The translations under genes were made by a program, and so were the position numbers. 64,000 bases of DNA from Amphiscolops sp. MND2022 (taxonomy: Eukaryota), in assembly GCA_964187785.1 (NCBI GenBank), contig OZ076413.1, positions 33,480,001 to 33,544,000 on the forward strand. The letters are read 5' to 3'. Of the stretch, positions 5,551-40,029 are shown piece after piece (position 1 is the stretch's first letter; the number at the start of each line of letters is the position of its first letter). The notes beneath the pieces were generated by a model. That model was not told the origin of the DNA, did not search any database, and saw nothing but the letters and a program-made list of their open reading frames with translations.

Positions 5551-7229
5551 TGTGATAATCTTCTTCCTCTGAATTTTTAATTGAGACTAATGTGGCGTCT
5601 GATATCTGTTTCACTTCGAAAAAAGGTTAGCAGGACATCGTGAGTTTTTCATTTTAGAGGCCTTAAGAGGATGATCCTCGTCTTCTGATTCTGAGGTTTC
5701 AGTATTGGATGCGTTAACTCCTATAGATTTTTTTACTTTTGGACCCCGATGGTAGCATATCATCAGTTTCTTGTATCTCAGACCTAGGATTTGTAACAGT
5801 AGATACACTTTTGTTTAATTTTATCTCTTTCAAAATTGCGTCTAGTTTGTTCTCCATCTCTTCTTTCATTTTCGCGATTCTATCGTTGTTTCTCTGTTAG
5901 AAAAATTCGGTTCAAGCTTGTATTTCATTGCTTATTTGACTGGGTTCAGTCAAACAGTTTTCTGGGTTAGATTCACCAAAATCTTCTTGAACATTCAAAT
6001 TAGAATTAGTTAAAGTTGTATTACCTGTTTCTGGAGAATCAACACTAGTTCTGCTACTTTCTCCGCTGGGAGATGGTGTTTCTAGTCTCCTCGACCTCCT
6101 GTTTCTCCTGTTTCCCATCTTGCTTAGTGGAAAACTAGGTACATTTGCTGGGGAAGAATTGGAATTATCTTTTCAATTTTGAAATCCAAACTTGAAAGAA
6201 ACAATGAAAACTGAAGAATTGTTTACACAGACCTGCAGAAACTGTATCAACTGCTTGTGGTGAAAGTTATTCTTGTTCTGAATCTCCTCTTCTCCTGGTT
6301 CTCCTCTTCAAAATTAAAAAGAATGACAAGCACTATTTCAAATGTCATAAAATCCTGGAAAAACAAAAATAGAATAACGTCAACCTTACATCATTCTATT
6401 TATATCACTTCCATGATGATGCCAATATGTTTAAATGGTGTAAAGACTTTAGGAAAAAACTGCAAATTACCATATTAAATTCCAAAAAGGCTGTTTGATG
6501 ATGTATAACTACATGACATTCAAATTTTGCAATTTTGGACGAAACATGGATAATACCGCATATACATTATATCTTGAATCGTAGGATGGCGCATAACGCG
6601 TATGAACATTTTTGTCAAAAAAGAACGTTAATGCATATACATTATATTCAATTCGTAAACTCAGTTTTATTATAAAAAGCGTATGTGATGTATGTTCGTC
6701 ACTGTTTGAACCGCATGACATTGTATGTTGATAGAGATGATAAACGTATGTTACCGCATATACTGATCATCTAAAAGCGCCTATTAACGTATGTTCCAAA
6801 AATCGTATAATGACGCATATTCAAAAGATCATTTCCTGCTGAATGACGTGTTTTCATGCGATCATTTTATGTGTAATGACGAATTTCTGACATTTACAAA
6901 ACGCTCATTGATGCTTATTCGTTGTCCTAAATGTAGTATGACTACGTATAGTGGAAATTAAAGATCACAGATTTATCATACTTATGTACTTTTTCTGCGC
7001 GTGTTAAATTTATGAATTGGGTTTAAATGAGCGAAGTGACTTCGGAGGACCTAGAGACAGGACCAAAAACAGATTCATCATGTAAAGCAAACAAATGATT
7101 TAGATGACATAACAAAAACATCATTAAGATGAGTTTAATGAAGTTTAAAAAGTTCGTTCATCGAGCTCCTTTAGACGTTCCTTTTTCATAGCTGCAGCAC
7201 GGAATCATCGCAACTAGACTGATGCGACA
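5551..7229 (-). repeat. 3' LTR of element A (1679 bp), carrying a copy of the gag N-terminal ORF (MGNRRNRRSRRLETPSP, 6118-5551)
   Basis: Direct repeat of 20148-21487, roughly 80-85% identical by eye. It has ~290 bp (about 6200-6500) that the 5' copy lacks. Confidence 0.9.
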
Positions 7230-7243
7230 GTCCCGCATTTTAA
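7230..7243 (-). promoter_or_regulatory. Candidate polypurine tract of element A
   Basis: Minus strand AAAATGCGGGAC immediately before the TGTCGCAT LTR start; purine run is imperfect. Confidence 0.4.
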
Positions 7244-8205
7244 AAAGGAACCAAACAGATTCGACGCCATGAATGAAAGCTCTGGATCTAATTGCTCTCT
7301 GTTTTACCGTCTCGCACTCAGATTCTGTTGCCCCCAGATACTCACCCAGCGTCTCTAGAGCGATCTGGTCGTTATACTTCCCACAGATGTCGCAGTAGAG
7401 TGCTACATTCGGCATCACAGTAGGCAAAAACTGTTGCACTGTCTCTCATTTGCTGGTATCAGAAGGAAATTGGTGCTGTGGGTTGTATCAAAAGGGAAAC
7501 CAATCTGCACCACTGGCTGCATCTGTACTTGTTGAATTCCATGCCCGTTTCTCTCATGGGAATGGGAAACAGAATGGGGGATAGATTGAATCTCGGAGCA
7601 TTTTCTGGTGTTGTCCCTTGTGGCGGAACCGTATTACCTCGAACTTCTTGTTCCATCGGTTCACTTGCTGGTGGGTGCTGAAACTTTGTCGACTCAGGCC
7701 TGTGATTGGGCGGGTACGTTGGCATTGGCCTCGGCTGGATTCCTCTGGATGTCAGAATCTGCTCTCAGAGTAGGAAGGTTTCTAGCAGTGGGGCGACCAA
7801 AACTATTTGTACATTTGTTAGGACCATTGCCCACTGTCCACAGAAATAAATTTCCTTCTTCGAACTCGCTATCTATAAATGAGTTTGGAGAAACCGCTTG
7901 ATCATCCTGGGGGACCCCATTAATTCCATTAGACACCTCTCTAGCTGAGTCCCTGAAGTATTTGCCGCTTCATTGTGTTCCAGAGTCACACTTATTTTGG
8001 GAAACAAAGTGCCAATCGTCGACTCCACAAACTCAGGCATCAGGTTACTCCCAGCCGGGTTTATCCGGAATTTTTCATCTAGTTGCGTAATGTTTCCAGG
8101 TGCGATGGAAAGTATATCCTCAGAATCACTTGAGATATCCACCACTTCAGGTGATATGAGGGAAAACAAGCAATCCTCGTCGATATTAAATTGAAGCTTA
8201 TTCAT
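7230..8205 (-). pseudogene. Sense-strand accessory ORF of element A, unknown product, frameshifted
   Basis: Four overlapping minus ORFs in successive frames (7873..8205, 7694..7936, 7459..7725, 7158..7439). Acidic/Ser-rich N-terminus and a C-terminal LYCDICGK motif; the last frame reads into the LTR. Confidence 0.5.
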
Positions 8206-8851
8206 TTTCAGGATTACAGAGATTTATATTACGTTTTCAAAGTTTTTGAAGAACGACTGATGTAAAAGATTATGATATCCATATGGTGAATCTTCCTCTC
8301 AGTTTTCCTTGATTTTGTTAAAACACCGCGAAAAAATTGAGTGTCATGGTTGCGTGGGTTTAGCGAAAATCTCATAGGTGATAGGGATGGCAAATTGCTA
8401 TACATGTATAGCGCTAGGTTTAAGTTTTCTCGTATAAAGATAAATAAACAAAAAAGGTGTGAATTCTTCTACATCTTTGATCGTTAATTTTATTTTTCAA
8501 TCTCTCAATTTTGTTTCAACAATATATAAATTTGCCGTTAACAAAATCATCATGGCTTAAATTTCTACAAATATGATTGAATCTTCTACTACATGCAATT
8601 TTCCTCGTCGACATCAATGAAACTTATATCAGGGAAAACATTTTACATGACTATTTCAAGGGTTCATGAAGTTTTAAATCACACGATCATATCATAGTAT
8701 ATCATTGAACGTTCCGCACTTGAAAAGTGCGCAATCTCCTGTGGAGAGTATAGGCACCTAACAATTCGTATATGGTGGAAATGAGTAGGTGTTCACGTGT
8801 TAATGTAGAGTATTTCTTTATGTATCTTTGTATGTAATATTCCAATCTGCC

Positions 8852-9250
8852 GCCGCGTATTTACCTTCTTTCAATACGTACGCTGCTGCAAACTTGTCTG
8901 TGCCAAAATCCATACATTGCCGCATACTCGTCATCGCTCGACGCGACTATCAACGTACGGTAGGTTAAATTTTGACAGCATAATACTGCATACGCAACTC
9001 CACTGGATATGAAATATTTTGCATACTTGTTCTCCTTGCCAAATTGCATACTAGCACATGCTCTTTCAACTATAATTCCTTGCAGTGCTGTATAAACTGC
9101 AAGCGTATTTCCGCATATTGGCGAATGTCTATAAATCGTAAAAACGCAAACTGCTGCATTTTGTTCATCTGTAAGTCCGCATATTTTTGCATGTTCAATT
9201 TTGAATTCCCGCATGCTACCGCTTATACACATGGAGTAAATCCGTGGACT
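8852..9250. repeat. CGCAT/GCGTAT-rich MITE-like insert in the cargo spacer of A
   Basis: Imperfect terminal inverted repeats (ccgcgtatttac / gtaaatccgtgg) and many cgcat/atacg motifs. Confidence 0.35.
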
Positions 9251-9589
9251 GCCGCTCGTTTGTTTGCGTTCTTTTCCGTTCCTGATGACCTAATGTCAAT
9301 TACGTAATCAGACAACCTGGCAGACGTGACTGACATTTAAATTGACCAATCAGATTGGAGTATACCATATACACTTGTACAAGTTTTGTGCGCATTTGCT
9401 TTTTGCCTTTCGTTTAATACGCCACGCCTTCTCTTTTCAAATTTGTCAATTTGTATTTACGTTTGTGTCTTTGTAGACGTCTACTCTAGTTGTTCTATTA
9501 GTCAAGTCAATTTACTTTCCAACTTTCATTCCACTTATTTCCCCGTATGTCCAGTCGTCTAGATTCTCCTAGAATTGTTGTTACTGCAA

Positions 9590-12500
9590 CTATGGGCGAC
9601 AACTGAGGTCGAGAGTTTTCGCAGGAGTTCGCTTCCAGAACGCGGACACGATCATCGGGCTATATATTTCCACCAGATACGTCACCAAGTGAGTTTGAAA
9701 TGTGTTTTTTTTTTCGGTTTATTCCTTCCCATTTTAAGCTTTTTAGAGTGAACATAGTTGGCCAGACCTTGAGCTCAGTGATTCGCTGATCAAGATTTTA
9801 TTTTGACCAGGATTGGTTTTGAAAATATTTCCAATTCCAGTTTCAGTTTTGTTTAACTTCTGCTTTCTTAATACCTGTTACCGCGTTTTAGGTCAAGATA
9901 TTTGGTTTATTTGTTTGAACTCAAAAAACCATTTGTTTTACACAAACTCACGGCAACTGAAAGATCTCCTGCACGCTCTCGTAGGAAAATTTACGGTCCC
10001 CAACAGGTCGTTCCGCCAAGTCATTCAGAGCCATCGGTGTACAGGATTCCACCTCCAAATACTTTTCCCTCTACTCACGAAAGGGTAGGACAAGAACCTC
10101 TTGTTGAAGAGGTTACTCATCCAATTAAAGCCGGAAGATACTGCTACCATGAATAACCCTGACGATTTGCCCAGTGCAGGACATCAATTTGGTGAATTGC
10201 AAAGTTCTGATTTACCAAGCATAGTTAGCCCTGATACTCAAGATGGCTTACAGCCGTAAGTTCTTCTCATTCAGTTTCTCCACGGTTCACTCAGTATCTA
10301 TCTATGGGTCAACAGCTTGGTACAACGGTTGATAACAATTCGCCACAAGAGAGAGCAAACCCAGCTGGAGTAGACGGAAAAGAGACTTTCCAAGAATCCC
10401 AATATTTACCAGAGGAAGTTGACTTACCACCACCCGGAAACAATGCTAGTATCAGCATTTTTCGGAACGAAGTTATTGCACTAACAATTGTATTGGGTCG
10501 TATACCCCAATCGTTCTTATCGGGGGAAAACAATTTGACTTCCGGGCTCACAGTCTCTGTAGTAAAGAACCTTCCAGGGCCTAATTGGGAAATCTCTCCA
10601 CAATACCGAGATATTACTGACCCGGGAAACCTGGACCATGGAATTGCAGCAGAATACGAACCCGAAGAATTTTCTCTAAGGCCATCCAAATGACCAAGAC
10701 CACGACATTGCTTGAGTGAGAGTATGTTAAGAAGACATCCAGTCTTAAAGTTCTCTGCCACCGGGCCAATTGATAAGAAGCAAACGCCGTAAAAATGGTG
10801 GTGCAAAGTCTGCAAAGTCGAATTATCTCTGATGAGCCGAGGGCTTTTAGAGATGATGTCTCACTATAAGACGGAGTCACATCATGTAAAAGATCACAGG
10901 ATCCGAATGGAAACACCAGATTTGGCCTTGTACGATCAAGAAGAGATAGAATTGCAGGGATGGCTTTGCAAGAAGCAAAAAGGACTGCTGAAGACACCCC
11001 ATACCTCCGCAACGCGGATCTCGACGACTGCTTGTAGGACAAGACAAACTACCTGAAGTAAATGGCCAGTCGAGGTTGGGCTTTAGAATTTGGACTGAAG
11101 CATGGTGGAACTATCACCAGCCTTATTGGAATTCACGATGAGATACTACAGCATACTTCAACGGTCAGCGACCTACAGCCTTCCAATTGGGAAAAATCGC
11201 GAAATTTTGTAAGTATTCGCTCTTTTCATACTCCTTACGTAGTAACTAAATTTGGTCCCTAGTCTATTGTACATGTGTTCTTTCCTGGTCTACTCAAGTT
11301 TTAACCTTTTGTTTGTGCTTCAGGGGATTTGGTGTATATGTTCCGAGAACTCATCAGTTATTGCACTACACACAATACCTCATCCGGAAGTTATTCACTA
11401 GTCTTGCAACATTCTTTCCTCTTTCTCTCCTTTTGGTCTTTTTCAGCGACTTTGTATCGGAACTGGACCTCGTGGTGTACTGATCCCCAAAAAGATCCTT
11501 GCACTTATTTTTTCACTTCTCTGCTTATTCGAATCTCCTCCCAATTGTATCAGCCTCGTTGACATGGGGGGAAATTTCAGCAAGTGTTTAGTTTCTGTCT
11601 TAAACAGCAACCCAAAGCCCAGTATTATTAACTGTTTCGGACCTGCTGAATTCGAGAGGTGTTTGGCCACCCCAACTGCCCATGATTTTTGTACAATTAT
11701 CGATTTTCTCCTCATGAACGTACGCAGGGCTCTTGATCGTGATTGGGTACATTCTTTGCCTATCCTCCACAAGGTAATGTTCTATTCAGAAAGTGTTAGC
11801 TTTATACATAAAATAATTATCAAGATTCATTCTCTTTCTTTTCAGTCTTTACTAACTTTGGAGCATTCATTGGCTGAAAGATCTACTTTGATCGAATGCT
11901 TTGCTACCAACTGGGATAGAATCAGAGACCACCTTACACAAGTGTCACGGTTGCCTGCTTACCGTTTTTACATGAGAGAGGCAAATAACTATACATCCAC
12001 ATTTATTGACATTTTTGATTCCAAAATCGGACTTTTGGTTTGTATTATAGCCCACCAGCCTCGACGGATGCTTTCGTCTGAATACCGCGTAACTAGCGTG
12101 TTTATTCATTGTTTATCGATCACTGTTAGTGTTCCTTTTCTTTTTCTCTTCTTTGTAAAACAACTTTATTTTGGAATTAAGCAGTCTCATTTACTTCCGA
12201 ACTCCCGTTATGATGCCAAAAAATCTTTTCTATCACTCCATAGAGGATAAATCACAATAACAATCCAATTACGTGTGAACTCTAACTTTGCAGCAAGTTT
12301 TACAAATACCAGCTCCAAATTTCTGATTCCCGCAATATAACGCATATTCATCATACCAGATAACGTATAATATCGTTTACACAGTGTGTTTGCATCTTCA
12401 TAGTAACGCACTTTCGAAATCTGGATTCCGAATAACTTTGTATATTCTTCATCCCGGGTTCGCATAGTGTTGCATAGCAAGAATGCAAATTCCGTATGAC

Positions 12501-14130
12501 GACGTATATCATTTATGCCAAGTTCCGCATGCCATAGTCAAAATTCAAATTCCGTATAATGATGTATATTCATCAATCTAATTTCCGCAATGCGTCGTAT
12601 AGTCAGAATTTAAATCCGCAGAAAGACGTATCTTCTTCATGCTAAATTCCGCATGGTGTTGCATAGTCAGAATTTAAATTCCACAAATAGACGTATATTC
12701 TTTATGCCAAATTCCGCATGGCGTCGCATAACTATGAACAGAAAACTAATGCGCGTTTCCACGTAATCAGAATTTCAAATCCGCATCTTGATGTGTAGTC
12801 ACCAGTGGAAATTCGCTCAGTGACGTTTTGCCAGTTCGCTGTTTGAAAATTCGCATAATCACGTATTATCAAAATTTCAAATCTATACACTGCTTAATCA
12901 TCGAGATAAAGATGTATAGTTACGATTTCAAACTTCGTGTGTCTATCTGGACACAATTCAGGTTCTAGACAGTGGTGAAGCTTCGGTGCTTTTATGACAA
13001 GTGATTTTAGATTTTGTTCTAGACAACTATGCATTTTCTGAGGTACATGGGGAGTTGAATCAAGGTTTCAGATTTTTCAACCAATTCACCGTTTTCGTGT
13101 ACAGCCAGCCAAAGAATTTGTTACGTGATGGCTTTCCCGGAGACATCTCATATTGGGATCCGAATCTAAAGATTGATCTGACGCAACCTGATGTTCCTTT
13201 TAAAACACCTGCCAATTTTGTTTTAAAAGCAGATATCCACAGCCTCATTACTTCTAGTCAACTACCACGACCACTTATAATCGCGGAGCAATCCATTGCT
13301 TTCTGCAATTCATTTTTTAGTATTTTGTTGTCCCATGATAATTTAAAATCAGCACTGTTTTGTGTACCTTCCTGTTTTGATCATGCCGTTATTCTTGATT
13401 GACCGGAACACCTTTACATCACTGCAATTGAAGATCTCACCAGTTACTTTGTTTTGACAGGAATAATTTCAGGAGGGAACAAATCTAAAGCATTTAGCCA
13501 ATACCGTTCATTCGTTACGAAGCTTCGTACAGTGGAAGATGTCCCAAACGCGATTGGGTTTTGTATCTAGGGTCTCATTATGAGATGCAGAGTCGATCCG
13601 AATTGTCACATGTCTTTCGTATTGCTTTCCTGTGTTTACCGCCAGTGGTGACAGTACCTACAAAAATTTGAAAATTCTGTTCCTGATTTGGAGTCTGATC
13701 AGGATGCATTCAAGTTGGTAGTTAGGAGCTTACGGTTGTCTCATGTCACTGTACCTAACGTCTCTAGCCTCTTCTGTGATTCTAACTCTGTAAAACGAAT
13801 CTTCCGACTGCCTGCTTGGGCGAGGCCAAGAAATACTCAGTGATAAGAACTTCTCCATTTGGGGTTACTTGCGCGGAAGCGGAGCTCGACGGACAACTTT
13901 GTTGGAGAAGTTCGAGGCGGTATACAAAAAGTCCGTTTTACAGACCGAAGGATAGTCTATATTTCTGGAAACCACTGCTCCGAGTGTAAGTCGTTTATTG
14001 AGCACCACCAGCTCACCTGGTTCAGGGCTTTCTGTTGGTTGCGTATCAATTAGTGTAGCCCGCTGCACTAAAGTGGAGCCTGATATAAGCAAGAATAAAA
14101 AAGGGAAAACCGAAAAGGCCAGTGATAAGA
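9590..14130 (+). pseudogene. Antisense multi-exon cargo gene of element A: C2H2/BED-like zinc finger plus weakly hAT-like body
   Basis: WWCKVCKVELSLMSRGLLEMMSHYKTESH at 10802-10882. GT donors (gtgagt ~9688, gtaagt ~11209) and a pyrimidine-rich AG acceptor (~11326). Later blocks IDFLLMNVRRALDRDW, FCNSFFSILLSHDNLKSALF..SCFDHAVILD and RSELSHVFRIAFLCL align to the B cargo gene. Confidence 0.7.
12467..12735. repeat. Degenerate tandem array, ~65-bp unit, ~4-5 copies
   Basis: The atag(t)ca..aatt.aaattcc...gacgtat...aaattccgcatg unit recurs at 12474, 12534, 12599, 12663 and 12728. Confidence 0.8.
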
Positions 14131-14315: not shown

Positions 14316-17300
14316 TATTTGAAAGAGTCTGAGTAGTTTGGGTTGGGATTAGGACGTAGGTCGTTTTTTCACCAGGAATATTTGTAGGTTCTTCTTGTAA
14401 TGAGGTACTTTGAGAATGTTTCGGGCTGTTTTGGGTATCATTTTCCGATGTATTATTTTTATCTTTTTGGGTTTCTTGTGTATTTGGGTCATCTTCAACA
14501 GAGTCTTGTGGGGTTATATCTATTATTTTTTTCTAGTTCAATGGTTTGTTCCACTGGGCTCCCCCCATTTGTTTTTAGAAAATCGGGGAAGGGTGGATGG
14601 TTATTTTTGGAATTTGTAATCGGTTGTATTCCGTATCTTCGTCATTTCGTGAAGAATCTGATGGGCCATCATCCAATGGGTTGGGGCCAAAATTCGTATT
14701 ATATGAAGGGCAGATAGATCATCATGTGCAACTATCATCTGGTCATCTTTTTGCCAATCAGTTCACGAACAAATATGTCCGCTAGAGGCGCTTGCGGGGT
14801 GAATTTCCCCTATGTAGCAACTGTTTCTTATTAGTGCCAAGTCGCCGTACTTTTTCCACTCTGTACGATCCGCACCATCTGAATTTGCCAAATGGTATTT
14901 TTGTGACTTGATTATCTGCCTTTGGAGTAAGAGTATAGCAGTTATCAGTAGTTTCGAGCGGAGCTGCATTTGCTTTTCTATCGTAGTAAGCTTTGTACTT
15001 GAGATATGACTGCATGATGTTCTTCTTAGTCTAGTCTAGAAGAACCTGCATTCGCCGTTGTAATTCTTCGGCAAAGTCAGTTTGTGGTTGAAATCTGGGA
15101 CTTGGATTATAACGTTATTTTGTGGTATACGGCCATGGAACACTCTCGAAGGTTCGCAACATAGTGATGCATTGTTTGTTGTGTTGTGATTCAGAACTGC
15201 CAATGGGAGATATTTATGCCAGCTCTTCCTAAACTCGCCTATTGCGGCATTTAGATGTGTTTCGACTGGTGCATGGGTTCTCTCAAGGAATCCTATTGTT
15301 TGAACATGTTTCAGTGTGGCATGTTTCAACTCAATCCCTAGTACCGTGGCAATTTCGTGAGTTACCTGGACATTGAATTGAGTTCCGAGATCTGTGATTA
15401 TTATTGTTTGGAGGTAAGTGTGTTTACATAGTATATCCATTATTACTCTTGACACAGCTGTGGAAGTGATGCGGGAATTACAGGATAGACAATCAAATAT
15501 CTCGAGAAGACATCTTTCGCAGTTTTGATGTGGTCATAACCTCCGCTAGGTGGAAGGTTTGGTAGGATATCCATCTGTGAGGTGTCTTCAGGACCAAGGT
15601 CCCATTCCGGACGTTCAAGGAGTTCTGTCCGGAGGAGGTCATTGTGAATACGTTTAGTTTGGATGCTTGTTTGACAATTATTAGCCCTTTTTCAAATGTA
15701 TTTAGCTATACATGCGAAGTAATACTTTTGTCTGCTTTCTTGTATCATCTTTGTGATTCCCGAACGGTTTGAATAATGACCATAAACGGTTTGGGGGAAT
15801 TCTTCCAGGAGTTGTTTAGGGAGCAAAAGTTGGTAGTGAGATATGATTCCTTTGTCAGTATATTGTTTGCGGGTAAGGACTTCCTGTTAGATTTCTAGTC
15901 TTGTCATATTGTGAAGGTAATGTTGGTGTCTGTAATCTGAAGCTAACTCATTTTTGTCGAATGGTTGACCTTCTAGTTTAGCTCGCAAGTTTCAGAATAC
16001 AATATCGTTGTGTTGTTTGAGACTGATTCGGGCATTGTCTTTAAAGTGCCCTGTTGAGCAGGAGATCAGGCCTGATGTGGGTTTATGAAACTGCTGGAGC
16101 TCAGTTCCGTTGTTTTCTGGTTCAAAATGTTTCATTTCAAGCTTGTTCACGCATATTGTGTTTTTCTTTCCTTAATTGATTTTCGTCGATTTCATCATCA
16201 GGAAGGATGTAAAATTTGCTCCTCTTCTACAATGCCTGATGATTGAATGTTAACTTCTATTGGCTTTGTGTTAATTTCATTGCGGATGGTCATTTCAAGT
16301 TTCTCAGTAGGGTTCACTTCAGTTCTCGAAAGGAAATCAGCCGCTGAATTCGTTGAACCGGCGACACGGGCAATGAAAAAAAAATTGTACTGCAAAAACG
16401 TGATCACAAGCGTTCCAAAGTGCTGGGGGATTTAGTTTTGCTTGAAAAAAATTTTTTCACCGACCTGTTGTCTGTGAAGACATTTACTGGCAACGTAGAT
16501 CCCGACATGAAGGGTCCAAACTCAACCAACGCAAAATAAATTGACGGAAATGTTTTTGCGTAAATTGACACCTTTGTTTGTGTCGGATTGAAGGTCTTTG
16601 AGTCAAAAGCTATAGGTGCATAGGTTTTGCGTTTGGATTGTATTTTTTGTTTTGGATCAACTTCTATCATTATTGCGTATCCGGGGGCTGTGAAGCTTGC
16701 GTCAGACATGACTATAAGTTGTTTTTCTTTGAGTGGTTGTTTTAACGCTAATTGGCCAGAGTTTTCAAGGAGTTTGTTCAGGTTTGTGAAATCTTCCACA
16801 AAATTGTTGAAATTTGGAAGTTTTTTGAGGAGTTTGAAAAACGGGTTGAGCCGTTCTGAAAGGCGTGGATCGAAGTTTTGGTAATAATTTAAAAAGCTGA
16901 AAGCGATATACCTCTGTAACGCTTTTTGATTTGGGAAAACGGAGTTTTGAGAGGAAGTCTTTCATTTTGTCGGCTTGAGGGGAAGTCCCAGGAAGTCCGC
17001 TTCCTTAACTCCCAAAATGACACTTTGACATGGAGAGTTTCAATCCCGCATTACGCATGCATTCAGAGACAGTTCTGATATTGGTACAATTATGTTTTGT
17101 GTTGTTGGCTGCTATGCCGATGTCATTGACATATTGGGCACATTTGTCTGCTTTGATTGCTTTGTCCAGGTACTCTCTCATGAAGATTGGGAATGCAGAA
17201 AGTGATCTGCTGAGACCTTGGGCAAGCCGATGATAAGCAAATGTTCTGCTTCCAAACTTAAAGGCGGGCATTTGAATGGATTGATAATCTGTCATTTAGA

Positions 17301-18760: not shown

Positions 18761-18989
18761 AAAGGTCATCATGCAGCAGAGGTTGTTTTTGATCATTGCA
18801 AGAAGTTCTTATTGTGACTTGAGTTTTTGGCAGGGTGGTGTGGTGAATTTCAGGGTATGAGTCGATTGTGGCGTGGGTTGTTTGTTGCGTAAAGTAGTTG
18901 TCTGGTGCATCATGTAAAAGTTCATAAAAGTCCTCAGGTTGAGTTTTTGGTGTTGAATGTTGTGAATGTGTCGTTGATAAGTCTGTTTC

Positions 18990-21883: not shown

Positions 21884-21893
21884 GGGTAATGAT

Positions 21894-24002: not shown

Positions 24003-24013
24003 GGGCCTCTCTC
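24003..24013 (-). promoter_or_regulatory. Polypurine tract of element B
   Basis: Minus strand GAGAGAGGCCC immediately before the TG LTR start. Confidence 0.65.
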
Positions 24014-24526
24014 GCACGAAAAGCTGTCAGGCCATTACGGTGTGGAAGTTCCATAGTTACTGCGACAGGTTCTTTTCGTGACCTCTGGATGTTCTTAGAG
24101 GAGAATCTTCCAACGCGCCCAGCGAACGAATACAATTTAGAATCACTCAATTCTATTGCGCAAACATCTTCTATCTCTTCCACAGAAGGCTCGCTTAAGT
24201 CATCTTGTTTGTCCATTTTCGGGGGTGGTCATAGGTGGTAGGCGACCCGTTTGTTACAACTCTCAACACAACGGAGGGTTGTAGAGGCGGCAATTGGCGC
24301 GGAGTATCAGGTTCTTCGTACAAGTCGCCAGCGTCGGTTGTTCCACTACGAACGCACAATCTTCGATGTTTTCCCTCCATGTAAAGTGTACTCTGCTGGG
24401 AGACTCTGGTAATTCCAAGGTAGACACTGACGTTACCGATGAATTGAGCTCGGCTTCGCTGCCTCTCCAGACTTCTACGGAAGAATCACTTAAGTCCAGT
24501 CTCCCAACCATGTTTAAGGTCAGCAT
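24003..24526 (-). pseudogene. Sense-strand accessory ORF of element B, unknown product, frameshifted
   Basis: Overlapping minus ORFs 24263..24526, 24195..24380 and 23905..24216; acidic/Ser-rich; the last frame reads through the PPT into the LTR. Same position as the A accessory ORF. Confidence 0.45.
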
Positions 24527-24799
24527 TTCATGGGAGTGCTACAACTTTGATCTTCTTCATCAGAAGAAATGTCGATTACCAGATCGTAATTATTCATCTC
24601 CGGTGCAATTGAAGTATATATTTTGAGCAACTGAGTTTTTCGTTAGTCAGATGGAGAGGTCAACTTTCCTTCGTTTGTAATTTTCACTGGAATTCTATTG
24701 GTCGATTTCCTTCCTTCGTTCCGGTCCGTCTTAAGTTAGGGAAACGCTTTGTTTCCATCTGCGCAGTCATTTGCTGAACCGAGAAGGAAAATCTTTTGA

Positions 24800-27700: not shown

Positions 27701-29435
27701 TCCATTTGGCGGTACATTCGTTGTACCGGGAAAGGAGTCATCTGATAAGGTTAGTTATTTTCCCAGTTTTGGCTGCTGGTTTTCATTGTTTTTTCTTTTT
27801 TATTGGATGTTTGTGTTACGTGGAGTTGCCGCCGTGTCTGCCTTTTGATGTTATTTCATTTATATTGTTTTCCAGATGCAGGGCACAGATTGGCTGTTGG
27901 TGGCTGACAACTTGATTGTCTATCGGTTTAGCCTATTACGTTTTATTGTCGATACATGTGAGTTTGTTTGAGTTTATCTGTTCTAACTGTTTCTTGGCTG
28001 TATTTGGATACGAAGTCTTTTTCTGTTTGACTGTTTTGACTGAGGTTGATTGTTTTGATTGAGTATTGGTTATGGGATTATAACTATTGGTTATGGGATG
28101 CTCTGTCTTGTTTTAGACTATATCAACTTTGGAAAGATGGAGCAGGGACGAACTGACAACGCATTCAATTCATACGGAGAAGTGTGTACTTTTGTCTACT
28201 GTTTGCTGTTGAGAACACGCGTGTCGAGAAGTCTTCCGAGCATTCATGAGTGGGAAGAGTATTTGGATGTTGCCAAGAATAGTGCTTTCCCAAGTATTCC
28301 CATCAATTAATTCCTCGAAAACTAGGACTTTGGAAAGAAGCTGTCGGAAAACGCGCGAGATCAATACGTTTCGGTTGTGGTGTTGCGAATTTTTTGACCG
28401 TTTGATTGTTACTTTGTTGGAGACTACCAGCGTGACTTCAGCTATTAGCAAAGGAATATACAAATTCTGTCCTGAACTGATGCTGGATGGCGACGACAGT
28501 ACTGCGTTTCCTCTGTTTGCTGGTTTTTGTAAAGTTTTGGAGACTTGCGGCGTTTTAGAGCTGGATGAATCCAAAGACGCTCTTTAAAAGTACACCTAAT
28601 ATATAGTGGAGAGGCGGAGGAGTCATGTAAACTCTAGACAGTATGCGAGCGATTGTACTGATGTGATGCAGCATTCATTTTTGGATTTTGGATTTCAGGC
28701 ACGTCATCGAGTTCTCCGCGTGTTTAAACTTTGTTGTCTTTTTGTGGGGACGCCCGCTCGCGAAAATCCTGCTATTAGTTTCGACCTCAGTGGTAGGGCT
28801 TTGGACTCTAAATCTTTCCACGACTGTTTACGACTCGTGCAAACGTACGTGATCAGTGCGAATTTTACTCCTCAGGGTCTCTCTAGTGATCAAGCTCTTG
28901 GTTCGTTCGAAAGGTCGTGTGTAATGCTGTCATCTTCTTCGTCACTGGAGGTTTCAATCAGTGGAAGGACTTCTGTCTCACAAGTTCTGAAGCAGCTTTT
29001 GTTCAACAATATGTGACTTTGTACACTGCGTGGTTGGCTAAACGTCGTAGAGTTTTTGATGCTGACTACAACGCTTGCAATGTTGCTGATTGTTTGGCAC
29101 GTACGCAATCCGTCAGCAAGACACCCGGTCAATTGCCACGTTCAGGGAGCGGCAGTGATGTAGCAGGTTCAAGTGGATCTTTAGTTACAGTGATTCAGAA
29201 AAAGAAAGTGGATGCTGTTCGTGCAAGGTGTTCGACAGTGAAAGCAGATAAGCAGGCTGGTGGTAGTGATAAATGATCTGCTCAAGGTGCAGGCTGTTCT
29301 ACTAGGGGACACTCAAAGAAGAGCGCCGTGACTGGGCTGGACGGTGATGTTACGCCAAAGAAAAAGAAGAAGCCTTCGAAAAAGGAAGTTGATCCAGACG
29401 TCGTGCATAGAATTAGTAAGCCGTCTGGCCGATGA
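24800..29435 (+). pseudogene. Antisense multi-exon cargo gene of element B, homologous to the A cargo gene
   Basis: FCRVCRRDVAMESHGSGEFSCHFVSKRH at 26365-26445. Introns with GT..(Y)nAG ends (acceptor tttttgtag 25841; gttggt 26080 to ttttgtag 26169; gttagt ~26990 to ctgtag ~27138). Later blocks FFDRLIVTLLETTSVTSAISKGIYKFCPELMLDGDD and RHRVLRVFKLCCLF; Ser/Lys-rich tail. Confidence 0.72.
26720..26922. mobile_element. Tc1/mariner-type MITE (203 bp) inserted in the zinc-finger exon of the B cargo gene
   Basis: TA flanks at 26718-19 and 26923-24; TIR (g/c)agtgcacaggcaagc / gcttgcctgtgcactg. Confidence 0.8.
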
Positions 29436-29589: not shown

Positions 29590-32500
29590 GAGGTTGGTGC
29601 AGGCCTTCCGTAGTACCTGAGTCGAGCAATCTGAAGTCAGGATTTGTATTAGGCTTTGGATTAGGTCTAGATTATTTCTTCTCACTTTTTCATGGTTTCA
29701 GCCAAAAATAAAGGCGACAGTTCAGGCGTTTTTGGAGGACTTTCTTGTGGCAGTAGAGATAGAATGTAGGGATTATCACTGACGTCCAGAATAAATGACC
29801 TAAAGTTGCCGGAGGATGTTTTATCCTCTTCAGTATTTTCAACTGTGGTTGTTTTAACTACTTCAATTTCCGTTGTAGATGCGTCATCCTCTTCTCTTGT
29901 CCGTGATTTCCATAATTGTGGCATCTTCTGGTGGATTTTCTGTAGTCTTTCCGAACAGAACTTCTCCGAAGTTGGTTTTCCAAGCTGGCGCGTACCAATC
30001 ATCATGGGTTGTTTCAACCTCTGGATCTGGAAGATACTCTTCCCCTCTGACAGTTGGTTCGACGCATAAAGCCTTAGGCGAACTTTTTGGAGGGTTTGTG
30101 TAAATCTTGTGCCCGTTCTTCGTACGACGTAGTTGTTATTCGAGAGTACTCTAACTACTATGTAAAATCCTGTCCAAATGCAGTCTTTGGAAGCAAATTT
30201 CATTGATTGATTGTCTGCTTTCGAGTTGAGGACGTAAATGTAGTCGTTGACTTTGAGAGGCGTAGCGGTTGCTTTCTTGTCATAGTATCTTTTGCACTTG
30301 AGGTAGGATTGCATGAGGTTATCTTTGGCAGACTGGTGTAGTTCTGCTATTTGTTCCCGTAATTCGTCCGCTAGTCCTTCGTTGGCGTCTTTTTTCCATT
30401 ATGGTTTAAGTCCAAATTTGATGTCCAGGATGTAATACGGAATGCGTCCGTAAAACACTGTTGTAGGTTCGCATCCTAGACTTTCGTGATAGCTTGTGTT
30501 GTAGTTCATAACTGCTATCTGTACGTATTTATGCCACATAGAGCATCGTTCTCCTGTTGATATTTTCAATGAATTTTTAAGTGTTGGGTGGGTTTTTTCT
30601 AGGATGCCTATTGTATGTGCGTGTTTTGTCGATGCGTGACTTATCCGTATGTTGAGTGTTTGTGCTATCTGGTTGACAACCTGTGATCTGAATCGTGATC
30701 TTTTGTCAATTGGTAAAACGGTAGGTAGGAAGCAATGTCTCGTCATTACATCGATGTTGCGCCGGGCGACTGTTCTGGCTGCCATGTCGTGTGTAGGGTA
30801 AGCGAAAACGTAACGTGAAAAGACCACCGTCATATTATTGATGTGATTGTATCCGTTCGATGATGGCAGATTTGGCAGTATATCAATTTCTACGCAATCT
30901 TTTGGTCCTATCGTAAACTCGGTGTTGCTTATCATTTTGTTACGTATTTGTCTCGTATCGATTCGTTTGTTAGCTATAGAGTCTGGGCAGCTGGTTACCC
31001 TAGCTTTTATCTTTTGTGCTAGTCCCGGATAGTAGTATTTTGTTGTGCATTCTTGTATCATCTTTGTTATTCCTGGGTGTTTGGTCTTTTTTCTGTGCAA
31101 AGTGGACACTAATTCAGGGATTATGTATTTTGGAAGTATTACTTGATGGTGAGTAACAGTCCCTTTTTCTCCGTAGTATTTTTGCATGAGTACTCCGTCT
31201 TTCATGATGATGCTTTCTTCGTGTCGTAGTAGATTTCTTCCTCTCGGTTGGTTCAGTTTTGAGGAGATGCTTGTCGTATTCTTCGTGGAGTATTCGAAGT
31301 ATTAGCCCTTCGAGAAGTGGATTTGCATCTTGTTCGTTTCTAAAACGGGCTTTTTCCATAATGGCACCGAACGTGGAGACTGCGGAGTTAGATGGTATTT
31401 CACTCACCTCGGTTACTTTGGTTGACAGTTGTGTTTCATGATAGTCTATGGCACGTGGTTGGCTTAGTGGTTTTCTCGTAAAAATTTCTTGTTCTAGTTC
31501 GTTTTCTTCATCTGGCAGTAAGAAAAGTTGTTCTTCATCTGCTACGTCGGTCGATTGAAAGTTAACTTCTATTTGTGACGTTAGTATGTCGTCGCGTAAT
31601 TTCAATTGTACTTTTTCTTTTGGTGTAAGTTCATGTTAGGACAGAAAATCTGCTGCTTATTTTGAGAGCCTGCTACGTGCATGATACGGATTTTGAATTG
31701 CAAAACTTTGTCACAGGCGTTCCATAATGCAGGCGGTGAAGTCTTTGTTTGGAAGAATCTCGTTACTGATCTGTTGTCTGTCAGGACTAGGGGTGGTATG
31801 GTTGTTTCCCATAGTATATGACTATGTTCAACAAAACATGATACATAGCCAGAAATTCTTTGCAGTATATGGACACTTTCAGTAGGGCTTGTGAAAACGC
31901 TACGTGAGCCAAACGCTACAGGTGCGAAAGTGGTTCTTTTTAACAGGATTTCCTGTTCAACGCTTTCCCTTCATGAGAGCCTGACCTGATGCACGGAAGC
32001 TCATTAGTCGTATAACTAATCCACAGGCTTCCGCTAGGCTGGCATTGATTTCCTTGAAGATGTCGAAAAGGTCTTTCGATATGGTAATTTTGGCATCTGC
32101 TTTTAAGAGTTCATACATGCCAAATAGGTTTTTCTGAGAGGCGTGGTATGTAGGTTCTATAGTATATGACGAAACCAATGTTTTTTTGGACTCGTTTCTT
32201 TGATTTTAGGAAACGAACTTTGGGCAGGAAGTTTTCGACTTTTTGATGTTGCTGTGCCACACCGTCTGGGGTGATGGTTCTGCCTAGGAATTCGACCTGA
32301 GTTACTACAAAGTGGTATTTTTCGATTGTCAGTTTTAGACCGGCTTTGCGTATGCATTTGAAAACTGCTCGAATGTTTTTGATCAGTTGTTCCGGTGTAT
32401 TTGCAGCGACGCCGATGTCGTCGACGTATTGTGCATATTGGTTTGACTTGATGACTCGTATGAAACGCAAAAAAGCAGACAGAGCCCTGCTAAGTCCTTG

Positions 32501-34020
32501 GGTTAGACGGCGGTATTCAAACGTCCTGCTAGCAAAATTAAAAGCAAGTAGTTCTACTGATCTTCGATCTGCCATTTGAAGGCAATGATAGGCTTGGGAG
32601 CAGTCGAGTTTGCAGAGCAGTTTTTTCCCCGCCAGGTGTTGCGCAGCATCTGAGAGGGCGCTGATGGGGTGATTGTTGTTAAGGTAGTCATCTGAGATGA
32701 CGGCACTGATCTTCCCCAAGTCCACTAGTAATAGGAGTTTTCCGTTGGGTTTTCGTTGGACGGAAATCGGACTGACATATGTGGAGAAGATAGGGTCGTG
32801 ATAATGCCGTAGCGATGCATGAGTGCTAGTTCGACTGTTAGACCTTCTTTGAGATTGATTGGGACTAGTAGGTTTTGTGTGTAGACAGGTTTGTCATCTT
32901 TGGGTGTTAGACGGACCTTGAATTGCGTGTTCATGCCAATATCGAGTCTGTGACTGGCAAAGATGGCGTTGAATTCTACGATTGTAGATTCTCTGTCCGT
33001 TGCCGTAATTTGTGAATCTGTCCATTGAAACATTGAAACGAACTTGTCTCGAGATTCTTCATTTTCAGTTGAATCAAGTTGTTCAAGTTCGGGCAGTTCC
33101 CGTAGTTCCTTGAGGACTCGCTTTTGTATTGGTGAGTGTTCATCTTCGTTGCCTGGTTGTCACAGGGTTGGGAAGCAAAACTTTTCTTCGTTGTCTTCTG
33201 GGCGTTCGACTTGCATCAAGGCATTGATGTACGTGACTACATCGTCATGGTCGGTTAGTAGGTTGAGTGCTGCTTTGTCAACTGGGCGGATCATTTTCGT
33301 TTCTTCGGGTTTAAGGATTTGTAATTCCGCTAGTTTGGAATCAGGAGTTATTTTGTACGGAAAGCCGGTGGTGTTGGCAATTTTGATTGCTACTTTCTTG
33401 TCTCGTGCTGTTGTTATTGCTGGGGCAACGATGAGTTTTGCACACTCGTCAAGCTGTGGTAGGCGTTGCACTGTTGCAGTTATTCGGTGGTCATTACTTA
33501 CAGGTATTGACGCGTGTATGATGCGGGTTGATTGTGCGGGTTTTGTATGTTTGCTCTCAGTTTTGATGGTGATCGGCTTTGGGCTACAATTCTGCATCTC
33601 GTCCTTGAGTGCCAATGTGATTTCATTTTGCGGGAAATTAATTGTCCCTTGAGCCGTATCAATTGTGGCGGAGTGCTTCCGTAGGAATGCTAATCCTATT
33701 ATGGGAAACCATGTCTGGTTCATTTCGATGAAGGTTTCTTCGAAGGTGTAATCACTGATTTTGAAACGCATCGTGTATGTTGCGACTGGTTGTTCTAATT
33801 CTGCGTTAGCATACTGTACTTTGAAAGGAGGTGGTGCTGTGCAACTTTATTAATGACGCAGGGTTTTGCTGCTGTGTGATTTTTTTGCATCCTTTTCACT
33901 AGTGGCATTGATGTACGCATCTGAGTCTACAAGAGCGTCTATGGTACCGTTACCGGATTTGATAGATAAAAAGAGCATTCTCTCCTTCTTCTTGAGGGCA
34001 ATTGCGGACATCAATGGTAT
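29590..34020 (-). pseudogene. pol: pol of element B (protease, RT, RNase H, integrase), decayed
   Basis: DALVDSD (PR, DSG mutated); KLDCSQAYHCLQMAD...AQYVDDIG (RT); HPGITKMIQ...YYYPGL...C (IN zinc finger); AYPT...VMTRHC...HAHTIGILEKTH (IN core). Confidence 0.93.
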
Positions 34021-36036
34021 GTAGGCGTCAACTTTGTCGTGTTGGATGAATGCTTTGATGGCATCTAGGTCGTGAGGTAGTGTTGGTTGAGACTCCGTTG
34101 TAGTTTCGTTGTTTTCGGATGTGTCTGCACAGGCGCGGTTTGTGGTAAAGGAAGACTAAGCGTCGATCGTCAGTTTTTCTGGGGTATGTGACCACAGCGT
34201 TTTGTCTTCGAGACAAATGATATCGTCTGCATTTATAGGTGTGGACGTTACTGTGACGGGTTTTGTTGGTGATGGTGTTGACTTTTTCAGGATCGGTGAA
34301 GGTCATGAGGGGATTGTTGGTAGTTTCGTTGATTTTTGTTGTCGTTTGGTACCTGTATTTTGAAGGAAAGGGTGTTGTTGTCATAGATTGATGGCTCATC
34401 GCAAGGATCACAGCGATAATCCATGTCGTAGACGTAGATCCTGTCTGTTTTGGATTCTGGTAGAGGTCGTTTGAGCGTTGCATAGTTGACTGGCGATTCC
34501 GTTATCCATGCTGGGAGAGCGGGTTTCGATTTTCTGGGTGCCTGGGGTTTTTGCGTAGAATCATCCCGACATTCTAACGTCGCTGCCATTCTAGTGTTGG
34601 TTCTTCATTGCACTCGGTCACGAAATGTTCTTCGAATCAATTTGGGGAATCTTCGATTGTGTATGCCCTCGCGTTTTTTCCCCTGATTTATAGGCGCGGC
34701 GATTTTGGTTTTTCTGGTTTAGATGATGGTGCGGCCAAAGGATGTTCGCTGATTTTTCTGTTTTTTTTTCATGAGGATTGCAAATTCGTGTCTCTTTCTT
34801 CTTGGGTTGTTCGCATGGGCCGCATGTGTTGCTTTTTGGTTTTTGCGAGTGATTCGCATTTATTTCGTTGCTTCTCACTTTGTGTTCGTAGCGGTCTTTT
34901 TGACTTTCCTTTGTAGTCGTCGTATCTGCCACAGTGGAAGCGGTGGCATCGCTGCTGTTGTTCTTTTTACTCCTTCGATGTGGCTGCGTCAACTGCATTC
35001 AAGGGAATTAATATTGTTTCATCGTGTGCTCTTAGTCCATTTAGTCGCATTTCGCGTTCGAGGTGCAGGACGATGTCATTGTAGGGTTCTAGATATGCTC
35101 GGTTAAGGATCTTTTTGACGTGATCCGGCATATTTGTGTAAAGTGCTTTGTCAATGAATTTTTATTGCAGTTTTTTCTAGCACATCTGAGAATTCTTAAA
35201 AGTTTTGTTTGGTCGGGTCAAAATGCAAGGCGTCCCACTCGCATCTGGCCTTCGCGGAGGTTTGAAAGTCCCCGAAATGTCGTTTAAATGCCGCGATTAC
35301 TTCCTCGAGGTTGTCTTTTTTAGTGTCATCAATGTTGCAATACGCTTGGAGTGCGTTTCTTTTTAAGAGTGAGTGGAAATAATTGATTTTTTGTATTTCC
35401 GTGAGATCGGGGTACATTTTGATGATATTCTTGAACAGGTCTTCGAAAAGTTCAAATTTTTTGGACTAACCGTCGAGGCGGGTAGCGAAGCAGTGAGCGT
35501 TTTCGGCATTGGGAGTTGAGTGGCTGCAATGTTCGCGATTGGGGTGCAAACAGTAGACTTGATGTTGTGCTGTGCTCTCTTGAGTGGTCGGTTTGCGACC
35601 GTGGTTGTTTCGGTTTCTTGGTGGGTTGGTTTGTAGAGTCATTGAGGACTCCTGTCACCAAGTTACGACTTTTGACTGGTGTATTTTTAGAAATAGTCGC
35701 ATTTGTTTATATGGGATTCGAAGTTGTATTTGGCTGAATGTTTTCTGTCTCACAGTCAGAGTTGTCTAAGTTTGGAACAACTTTAGTCTTCCGTACAGTC
35801 GGGGATATTAGCTTTAACAATTCTTTCTGATTTTCGGATAATATCTTTGTGATATCAGTTAAGATTTCCTTTCCTTAGGATTTTTTATCTCGTCAAGAAT
35901 TTCAGTTTGAACTCTAGGAGCTTTGCTAGTACTGGCTATACAGTTCTCCGCTAGATTGTTTCCAGCGAGAGAAGATTCTAACTCTCCTGATGCTACCTTC
36001 AGCTGTAGTTTTCCTTTTATGGCTTCTTGTGGTCAT
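34020..36036 (-). pseudogene. gag: gag of element B, starting inside the 5' LTR
   Basis: ATG at 36036 (MTTRSHKRK) in the LTR; ...TPVKSRN-(M)VTGVLND across the junction; gag core QKINYFHSLLKRNALQ...AKARCEWDALHFDP. Confidence 0.75.
35648..35660 (-). promoter_or_regulatory. Primer-binding site TGGTGACAGGAGT of element B
   Basis: Directly after the LTR end; identical to the PBS of A. Confidence 0.8.
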
Positions 36037-38168
36037 TTTATAGGTGAAAAATGGGGTCCTCGGAAGTATTTGAATTCTTCGAAGAGGTATCTTAAAAATT
36101 GGGTTTGTTCACCAAAAGTCCCTAATGATTCAAATTATTTCATTCTTGCATCACTAACTAGGTATCAAGGTTCCTAGTTCCGTCAATACTCCGCTGAACT
36201 TGCTGAAATCATTTTTAATCATGTTAGTACATTTCCTGCATAAATCTAGAAAGGGCGGCAGAATTAAAGTCCGATCAATACTCATCTGCGGAGACATGGC
36301 GGCGTGATCAATTAGTCAATTTACGAGCTTAGGATTTTGAAGTTCAAGACAAAAGTATGACAAGCAAAAACGACAACGCTAACGAAACGGAAAAAAAATA
36401 TTTTTAGTATTGGATTGGCTCAAGCTATGAAAGACGGAAGGAAGAAATGATGCTAGAATCGAACTATTATTATTTAACAAAAAATGCCTGAGGACTGGCA
36501 ACACAAAGTTGAAAATGTCAAACATTAACAAACTGTTCACTTGAATTGTTACATTCTCAATTCTGCGAAATAACAACGGAAACCACTTAACAGGATTTGG
36601 AAAGATAATGATAACTGAACAGTGTTTTTTCACAGGAGGCAAAACGAAAACATCACGCTGTTTTACACCGTATGGGGGAGTACAAATCATATCATAAAAT
36701 TTGGTATTCAATAACATCATCAACACTTTTCAAAAATAAAATCCTGTTACGTAGATCAAACTAAAGTTAGACACTGCATTTTCAGATGGATAGTAGAAGA
36801 GTTGACACTAGTGTTACATTTTTAATTCTTCCTCAGAGTATAACTTTTGTCATGTATGTTTTAAACCTTAGGTCGTTCATGGTAACTTTTTTCCGAGAGA
36901 AAAGTCCCAAGCTTCTCTACTAATTTCCATTCCCTTTTTGCTACAATTTTACAATATGTTCCGCAATTGCTCCGTATGTATTAAGCTTAGGTATAGCCTC
37001 ACAATCTTACAATCTGCTCCGTAAGCGGCGCTCCGTACGTTTTAAGATTAGGTTTAGCTGAGTTACAGTTGACTGACAGTTATCGAAGAGCGTAGGCATT
37101 TTTTCTCTTCCTCTTAACTGAGCGGCGCCACACAATACGATACATATGCCGCAACGAACTAGCAAGATCTTGCTAGTTCGATTAACAGTAAAAAAAAAAC
37201 GCATTCTTATTTCAGATACGCGTTACTAGTTCTGCTCGTTACACTGTGTGATTTGGCGTTACGCGTAGTAATCAAAATACAGTAAATGACTCTAAACACT
37301 CTCTACAATTACGTAGCTTTGTTTGCAGTTATTTTTACTCACGATGTGTACCAAAATGTGACTGGTTTCCACTTTTCTCTAATTACGTACGCTCAATGAT
37401 CACAGTCCGCAGTTTCTGATTACACTGTGCATCACGATCCATGATGAACAGTGTGCACTCTTTGACTAGAATACGGTTCGCTCTCGTTTTTACGGAAAAT
37501 ACAGTTTACACTTGATGATAAATTCCACTTTTGCGGCATATGTATCGCAATGCAAAGGCGACGTTCTTATTGGATTGAGCTCAAATAACTCGGCTAAAGG
37601 ACAACGCTTTTGGTCCGTAAAAAAAGAAATTCCTGCTACTGGTTTTTTGAGCGACGCTGCCATAACGTTGTATTTATTTGCTTGAATTACTTGACTGTAA
37701 TTTAAGTGAATTCCAAAAACTAATTCTAATATTGAAAAACAATCCACTATACTACTTTGTATGTTCTTTTCTTTTGTATTGTATGATCTCCGTTGTGAAT
37801 GCGGAATTTGAATTGTTCCTAATGTTTCTTTTCAGGATATCAGAAGGAGAAATAACTTTTTTTTGAAACTTTGTTCATGTTTTAAAATTTAGATAAGTAT
37901 GGAGTTTCAGAAGACGAAACAGGAAATAAAACAATCGCGCGCAAAGTCGTTGGACCAGAATTTTTAGTTAGGTTGAGATTATTTTCCAAAAATACTCGTA
38001 GCGCGTACGTTCAAATTTTTTATCTGGAAAATTGTTCGTCAAACGTCTAGCTATACTGTAAGTAGAATTAATTTTTTTTAATTAGTTTAATTTAGCAATA
38101 TTTGTTATGTCAGTGTCCAAATGCTCTGGGTAGTCAAGGGATGCCGCAGCAACATGCAAAACAGCGAC
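35661..38168 (-). repeat. 5' LTR of element B (contains a 420-bp MITE)
   Basis: Direct repeat of 21894-24002. The terminal A of the CA end is mutated to T; the outer TGTCGC end is shortened. Confidence 0.85.
37133..37552. mobile_element. MITE with 22-bp TIRs inserted in the 5' LTR of B
   Basis: Absent from the 3' LTR (gcggcgccgcaaaggcg is contiguous there). TIR caatacgatacatatgccgcaa / ttgcggcatatgtatcgcaatg; apparent CA duplication. Confidence 0.8.
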
Positions 38169-39967: not shown

Positions 39968-40029
39968 TCTCTTATTCTTCATATCCTTCATATTCCCATA
40001 CTGGTTAATTCAAAATGTCTTCATCAACG

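Follow-up and report, generated by a model that had tools for sequence, protein, structure and literature searches.

Can a large animal retrotransposon carry, and keep, a gene that is read against its own direction? The question is raised by a 64,000-nucleotide (nt) stretch of the Amphiscolops sp. MND2022 assembly (GCA_964187785.1, contig OZ076413.1, positions 33,480,001 to 33,544,000; hereafter the window), in which two Gypsy elements, A and B, each hold several kilobases of extra sequence, the cargo, between pol and the 3′ long terminal repeat (LTR). We give about an even chance to the reading in which A and B are decayed copies of a large animal Gypsy lineage with a conserved antisense accessory gene, the product of which would be a nuclear DNA-binding regulator. 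The module itself is real, lineage-wide and, as codon and splice-site comparisons indicate, selected. Its layout is already known from the antisense extra open reading frames (ORFs) of plant and fungal Gypsy elements. Wnt genes in the assembly show that the host is an animal.

The LTR pairs were identified by comparing the window with itself, and both elements are on the minus strand. The LTRs of A are 81-85% identical and those of B 82-91% identical in pieces; both elements are ~16 kb long, old and decayed, with stops and frameshifts throughout. Pfam matches give the order reverse transcriptase, RNase H, integrase (RT-RH-IN) downstream of gag, and the primer-binding site (PBS) TGGTGACAGGAG follows the 5′ LTR in both. 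The first-pass annotation had described two Gypsy elements with unrelated LTRs, and indeed gag-pol aligns between A and B while the LTRs do not (best blastn E 0.078). The order that it gave (LTR, PBS, gag, pol, an antisense gene and a sense ORF diverging from a spacer, polypurine tract, LTR) is correct; the polypurine tract is short, and purine only in part. In A the cargo comprises ~7.1 kb and in B ~5.6 kb; in both, the antisense zinc-finger gene and the sense ORF are arranged divergently, and the sense ORF runs into the 3′ LTR. The A gag frame opens inside the 5′ LTR as a 211-aa ORF and reads through the PBS (window 20148-20758; L016). The flanks of A show a 4-of-5 match to a 5-bp target-site duplication (TSD), and none was found for B because its 5′ LTR is without its first bases. 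The features of the two elements, in window coordinates, are as follows.

5550..7229, minus strand: element A 3′ LTR, ending ...TATCACA
7192..8205, minus strand: decayed sense accessory ORF of A (intact relatives have about 342 aa), ending inside the 3′ LTR; motif like a SUMO-interacting motif (SIM) N-terminal, CxxC and helix C-terminal
8206..9590, unstranded: A spacer between the divergent genes, right border approximate, presumed internal promoter; CCGCAT motifs at 8920, 9111, 9177 and 9209
9944..11208, plus strand: A antisense exon 2, with a disordered N-terminus and a CxxC-x16/17-H-x4/5-H zinc finger, frameshifted; donor GTAAGT at 11209
11323..11773, plus strand: A antisense exon 3 (middle exon), predicted position of an RNase H-like core, without a profile match
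11846..11980, plus strand: A antisense exon 4, 71% to an intact relative
12051..12124, plus strand: A antisense exon 5, donor GTTAGT at 12125
12440..12730, unstranded: 65-bp tandem array, CCGCAT-rich, within the last intron of the A antisense gene
13023..14120, plus strand: A antisense last exon, helical domain with a modest match to the C-terminal half of hAT transposases; stops and a frameshift
14581..19037, minus strand: A pol, broken; RT-RH-IN matches span 14581-18127, and ORF pieces upstream of them are read as the protease region
19041..20758, minus strand: A gag, broken, its frame starting inside the 5′ LTR
20134..20147, minus strand: A primer-binding site TGGTGACAGGAGCC
20148..21487, minus strand: element A 5′ LTR, starting TGTCGCA
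21895..23984, minus strand: element B 3′ LTR
23953..24600, minus strand: B sense accessory ORF, decayed, with a VIDISSDEE motif, ending inside the 3′ LTR
25479..25763, plus strand: B antisense gene, N-terminal low-complexity exon piece
26200..26986, plus strand: B antisense zinc-finger exon, donor GTTAGT at 26987, broken by a later insertion
26715..26928, unstranded: 214-bp high-copy dispersed repeat within the B zinc-finger exon, not part of the module; it is young (34 of 47 matching rows cover this piece only, at 95-98%)
27140..27749, plus strand: B antisense middle exon, spanning A exons 3 and 4 with no intron between them; donor at 27750
27876..27957, plus strand: B antisense short exon, donor GTGAGT at 27958
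28137..29420, plus strand: B antisense last exon, decayed
29965..34155, minus strand: B pol, broken; RT-RH-IN matches span 29965-33435, and ORF pieces upstream of them are read as the protease region
35009..35465, minus strand: B gag, matched part
35649..35660, minus strand: B primer-binding site TGGTGACAGGAG
35662..38168, minus strand: element B 5′ LTR, first bases missing

Compared directly, the two window cargos are not significantly similar (tblastn and blastn; best tblastn E 0.19), so the conservation of the module was tested via relatives in the 1.07-Gb assembly that contains the window. Only via intact relatives is the homology of the A and B antisense cargos apparent; the conserved module proposed earlier stands as a property of the lineage, and not as direct similarity of the two window copies. 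Cargo-protein searches gave at least 104 matches with the A last exon, at least 145 with that of B and at least 108 with a distant outside homolog, and integrase searches twice gave at least 150 scored matches. At least 150 copies are 98-100% identical to one integrase of a third lineage, C. Of the loci selected by cargo, nine of 10 A-type copies and 19 of 20 of A/B type sit between an LTR pair with gag-pol, in agreement with the initial placement of the cargo inside the elements; the five B copies closest by DNA are old and partly deleted. With a distant query, pol was beside the cargo at eight of 10 loci and no pol was found at two, and a further 10 loci comprised five LTR elements with pol, four chosen as kin of the pol-less type and one cargo without pol. 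The young copies are 15.6-16.9 kb long and have TG...CA LTRs that are up to 99.9% identical (>99% in many), a PBS in 13 of 13 and a perfect 5-bp TSD in 11 of 13.

For the reverse test, 20 loci (10 B and 10 C) were taken at even steps from the integrase match lists, passing over one locus already in the sample. All 20 carry the three antisense segments in the same order, plus a sense ORF. The module is fixed in three pol lineages. In these samples neither a cargo lying mostly outside LTRs nor elements lacking it were found, and the copies in a DNA transposon, outside LTR pairs, represent secondary capture; an animal Gypsy lineage with a long-retained accessory module, as first proposed, is what the relatives bear out. 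Two variants were also seen. One young C-lineage element (L177:2839-7478; LTRs 99.3%) has a tandem duplication of the zinc-finger and middle exons, and the full cargo occurs beside a 370-bp direct repeat with no gag-pol within 30 kb (L191-L192, L209), possibly as a non-autonomous derivative.

The antisense zinc-finger gene of the first-pass annotation is present, and we now describe it as one multi-intron gene, probably derived from a hAT transposase. An intact A copy has six predicted exons (97, 1325, 486, 135, 82 and 1100 nt) with GT-AG boundaries and phases that fit together, giving 1,074 codons from ATG to TGA. Splice sites were counted in 47 copies of three lineages, excluding C exon 4, the C last exon and the B short-exon acceptor. 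The donor of the zinc-finger exon is kept in 46 of 47 copies, that of the middle exon in 44 and the middle-exon acceptor in 43 of the same 47, the short-exon donor is kept in 40 of 43, and the last-exon acceptor is present in all 31 A and B copies. At the B short-exon acceptor, the AG lies three bases further upstream than in the reference in nine of 10 rows. GT-AG splice sites thus occupy homologous positions across the three lineages. The intron between exons 3 and 4 is present in A and C and missing in B (27140-27749; L055:7614-8234), which is an intron gain or loss within the antisense gene.

The A and B antisense proteins are only 15-26% identical over three aligned segments. We estimated the ratio of nonsynonymous to synonymous substitution rates (dN/dS) from pairs with dS of 0.15-1.2, and obtained medians of 0.087 for the zinc-finger exon (18 of 406 pairs), 0.073 for the middle exon (26 of 595) and 0.082 for the last exon (16 of 561). 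These values, like the 0.112 of the A sense ORF, lie below 1, the level that the first-pass annotation had named for testing the cargo. The same codons read on the opposite strand, as a control, gave 1.2-1.7. By these codon comparisons the gene is shown to be selected as a protein on the antisense strand. Its finger retains the zinc ligands in 43 of 47 copies, and a basic stretch closes the last exon in every lineage examined. The extra genes show no transmembrane feature (maximum 19-residue hydropathy 1.62).

In a within-genome RT tree, A, B and C are strongly supported as separate groups. In the last-exon tree (a quick method, with a long-branch warning) A and B are separate, pol-less copies fall among C, and C forms one side once copies with terminal inverted repeats are counted inside it. 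Distances of pol and cargo are correlated (Spearman 0.61-0.71), and the cargo has largely co-diverged with pol, diverging far faster than RT (maximum distance 0.86 vs 0.23). The last-exon profile detected 864 clusters at 50% identity among 1.84 billion proteins; the ten that were looked up had no informative name, and some were on short MGnify, JGI or ENA contigs. This suggests that the antisense gene ranges more widely than this genome.

Where did the gene come from? A motif of a non-Ac hAT subgroup (LPHSNA..ER.FS type) led to 54 metagenome loci, from which four long ORFs carry Pfam Dimer_Tnp_hAT. The cargo zinc-finger profile matched the metagenomic hAT fingers at E 4e-6 (best reversed control 0.076), and profile-profile comparison of the finger gave probabilities of 88-96% (E 4e-6 to 1e-9). 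For the last exon, profile-profile comparison gave E 5.5e-4 and a probability of 30% over 146 columns at hAT residues 402-558, with z about 3 against 30 block shuffles. Controls, reversed or of Ac type, stayed at E ≥0.35, and the Ac-type BED finger had no match. Both matches are to the same hAT subgroup and in the right order, which would fit a whole transposase. Exon 4 resembles by eye, with no score, the hAT stretch after the RW motif. None of 58 last exons contains the ER.FS motif, and no conserved Asp is at the presumed first catalytic position (set by eye). On these matches, we consider it probable that the antisense gene descends from a hAT transposase; given that descent, the enzyme would almost certainly be catalytically dead.

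The last exon was modelled at a predicted local distance difference test score (pLDDT) of 38 from a single sequence, too low for use, and 60 from the alignment, and Foldseek and VIA comparisons of the latter model found generic helical bundles only (Z up to 5.2). Atlas gave no usable match for the last exon, and a protein search found no longer relatives of it; searching with the zinc-finger alignment recovered 85 unnamed family members with no Pfam domain. No locus was obtained from a metagenome DNA search with one outside homolog, nor any match to the hAT motif pattern in viral contigs. Genome searches for DUF4371 and zf-C2H2_12 had no match anywhere, controls included, and no close donor-type hAT was found among the sampled hATs of this genome. 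One metagenomic hAT transposase (L240:260-2959) is fused to an N-terminal OTU deubiquitinase-like domain (E 4e-14).

We identified at least five near-identical loci at which a C-type antisense gene with open frames is inside a 34-38 kb DNA transposon (C12 ~13924700-13958500, loci L201, L202, L161 and L162; C2, loci L203, L204, L185 and L186; C10; C1; C281). This transposon has CCCCAG...CTGGGG terminal inverted repeats, 2-bp flanking duplications (clear in three of four), a 654-aa EnSpm-type transposase (DUF1258 E 4e-9, Transposase_21 E 0.002) and two weak SET-like ORFs (E 0.015 and 0.075), and it also holds a piece of a B-type sense ORF. Its copies are mostly 88-97% identical, and an 8.9-kb shorter relative is in L169-L170. 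Since the transposon-borne copies group with lineage C, the gene was captured secondarily by the DNA transposon. This hints that it may serve a transposon without an RNA intermediate; hitch-hiking is possible.

The sense ORF is 260-390 aa long, acidic and of low complexity. The sense ORFs have no transmembrane stretch (maximum KD19 hydropathy 0.3-1.1) and no Pfam match, and without such glycoprotein features an env reading was rejected. The A sense ORF (dN/dS from 24 of 171 pairs) shares a C-terminal CxxC domain with that of C (E 1e-14 to 3e-4). Between A and B, the earlier claim of a shared sense ORF holds for position; homology is not demonstrated (hhalign probability 12%, 14 columns), and all that they have in common is a V[VI]DISS-acidic motif that may resemble a SIM, present in every one of 19 A rows and seven B rows.

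VANC targets are clustered short motifs in non-coding DNA, and lineage A has motif clusters that can be likened to them. CCGCATA is the most enriched 7-mer in four of four A subfamilies (9-19 observed against about 1 expected), and it clusters in the LTR, the spacer and the last intron. Clustered GACGTCA/ACGTCAC words, like a cAMP response element, were also seen in the LTR or spacer of B-related copies (L193, L061). In plants, transposases and their dead derivatives are sequence-specific activators, Spm TnpA evolved from a transposase, and domesticated transposases lose DDE (bioRxiv 10.64898/2026.08.24.746577).

We propose the following history. An ancestral element probably took up a hAT DNA transposon in reverse orientation. 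An LTR element can retain introns only if they lie opposite to the strand that is packaged as RNA, which would explain the antisense orientation: very probably the introns survived because the packaged transcript, being of the other strand, never undergoes splicing there. It is fairly likely that an internal promoter, in the spacer common to it and the sense ORF, drives the gene. Its protein would have kept the zinc finger and the C-terminal helical region and lost DDE, and may, at a little under even chance, bind clustered element motifs (CCGCATA in A) and counter silencing like VANC or TnpA. Descent from a transposase that lost its enzyme activity, the basic tails, capture by another element class and the CCGCATA enrichment lend indirect support to such a regulator, and a nuclear, sequence-specific protein that counters silencing is close to an even call. 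That the acidic sense protein, through its SIM-like motif, is a partner acting on SUMO-dependent silencing seems unlikely. The most extended form of the proposal, a dead hAT-derived transposase with introns kept by backward carriage, used as an anti-silencing factor and then taken over by the giant EnSpm-like transposon, would make the gene the animal equivalent of VANC/TnpA, able to pass from one class of transposon to another; we put this forward tentatively, as somewhat less likely than not.

Several results weigh against this reading. The A motif lies partly in tandem arrays, which inflates the CCGCATA count, and no motif is common to the seven B, C and D copies. The integrase-selected sample consists of top-scoring young B and C copies and not of lineage A or sister clades, and the dN/dS medians come from a small number of non-independent pairs (16-26 per exon; one for sense ORF B). 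The last-exon hAT match is modest (probability 2-30%), and the middle exon and exon 4 have no profile similarity to hAT. Pfam searches of the cargo ORFs and alignments gave no family, with Dimer_Tnp_hAT unmatched in the last exon; a PDB sequence search gave chance-level matches only (ApcE, C-reactive protein); and the Ac-type hATs of this genome and one Tip/DUF4371-like hAT have no similarity above shuffles. Atlas look-alikes of the zinc-finger part (GTF2IRD2, SPIN-DOC-like, FAM200) scored 0.88-0.92 with a recognition warning, and are for that reason a lead only.

What else could the gene be doing? The antisense protein might act at an RNA or particle step, in Rev- or CERV-like export of unspliced genomic RNA, nuclear import or integrase tethering. 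CERV, the accessory protein of the animal LTR retrotransposon Cer1, acts in this way (PMC10309623), the basic tail of the last exon is found in all lineages examined, and CxxC-H-H fingers can bind RNA (weak matrin/jaz-type Pfam scores, E 0.2-0.8). However, the finger matches a transposase finger, and the EnSpm-like transposon, with neither RNA intermediate nor integrase, carries the gene open in its five or more copies, if not by recent hitch-hiking; we regard an RNA-step role as unlikely. A self-limiter, or a dominant-negative protein aimed at rival hATs or elements, with antisense RNA adding repression, is improbable. Antisense transcription can form double-stranded RNA with genomic RNA (PMC7264820), and a dead transposase that keeps its C-terminal region could conceivably poison multimers, but the carriers are extremely abundant and young (the ≥150 copies at 98-100%, and LTRs above 99% in many) and the sampled genome hATs include no close donor type.

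Doubts about origin and retention bear on the same evidence. If the hAT matches were generic or due to chance, the gene could be a captured host gene, or of other non-hAT origin, and still a functional accessory. The unmatched middle exon, the absence of any Z ≥6 in the fold search with the last-exon model (pLDDT 60) and the five introns typical of a host gene would all suit this, yet two independent matches fall in the right order within one hAT subgroup while controls, including the Ac-type BED finger, stay silent, and we think such an origin quite improbable. That the cargo is a neutral passenger, or arrived by independent nested insertions in A and B, could be suspected from window cargos that do not align directly and from gene copies outside LTR pairs. 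It is refuted by the dN/dS of about 0.08, the common intron positions and splice sites, the congruent trees, in which non-LTR copies group with lineage C, and carriage of the cargo by 20 of 20 integrase-selected copies.

Elsewhere in the window, a ~400-bp dispersed repeat has three copies (1712-2139, 21481-21890 and 42641-43036; 68-79%), one of them exactly between A and B. BEL/Pao remains are at 49153-52234 (Peptidase_A17 E 8e-23, weak rve and protease matches), a Tc1/mariner-type DDE_3 fragment at 45495-45860 (E 4e-9), a 417-bp tandem duplication (95%) at 39143-39970 and an assembly gap of 200 N at 56421-56620.

The closest known arrangement is that of the aORF-3R systems, namely Retand TRP28, maize Grande gene23, rice RIRE2 and Botrytis Boty (PMC7264820, PMC11963269). 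As in these, an antisense ORF is between pol and the 3′ LTR at the same position and in the same orientation, in a 3-6.5 kb pol-to-LTR region with tandem repeats that is retained lineage-wide, and a nuclear regulatory role has likewise been proposed (PMC7264820, PMC11963269). Unlike aORF-3R, the present gene is in an animal host, has five predicted introns (none is mentioned in the consulted sections of PMC11963269), is paired with a divergent sense ORF, and has an origin traceable to hAT, where that of aORF-3R is called unknown (PMC7264820, PMC11963269). No match to TRP28 (PF04195) or any other Pfam family was found in the antisense ORF by Pfam searches of cargo ORFs and alignments; this and the animal host rule out membership of plant Tat/Ogre/Retand. 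At ~16 kb, the elements are at the low end of Ogre (16-25 kb) and half the size of Burro (>30 kb; PMC6431247).

In being a mobile-element accessory protein or transposase-derived regulator, here judged by sequence alone, the antisense product is like VANC, TnpA and FAR1/MUSTANG. Those belong to plant DNA transposons or host genes, whereas here the carrier is an LTR retrotransposon and the donor a transposon of a different class. The zinc finger and, more modestly, the C-terminal helical region align in order with LPHSNA..ER.FS hATs and with GTF2IRD2, FAM200/ZBED5 and the SPIN-DOC-like finger; unlike those hATs, the gene has no DDE residues, ER.FS motif, terminal repeats of its own or detectable core match. 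Large animal LTR elements that retain accessory genes include those with env-type ORF3, bdelloid ORF3 (DEDDy, GDSL), planarian Burro and C. elegans Cer1 with CERV, and gene sharing between unrelated element classes also occurs in bdelloids (PMC5408684). These animal Gypsy extras are ORF3s, polyprotein domains or spliced element mRNAs (PMC5408684, PMC6431247, PMC10309623), unlike the opposite-strand, intron-containing gene described here, which has no env feature. In the publications searched, with Repbase outside their scope and prior annotation therefore possible, we found no accessory gene of an animal Gypsy element that was antisense and intron-containing or derived from a hAT.

What the antisense extra ORFs of LTR retrotransposons derive from, and what they do, has been called an open question (PMC7264820). 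The family reported here offers a traceable origin, in a hAT transposase, and a reason for the antisense orientation, in that introns survive. With hundreds of young intact copies in one animal genome, and candidate target motifs, the question becomes directly testable. The anti-silencing proteins of the literature consulted come from plant DNA transposons. If the proposal is true, anti-silencing by an animal retrotransposon could help explain how one lineage came to swamp a 1-Gb genome.

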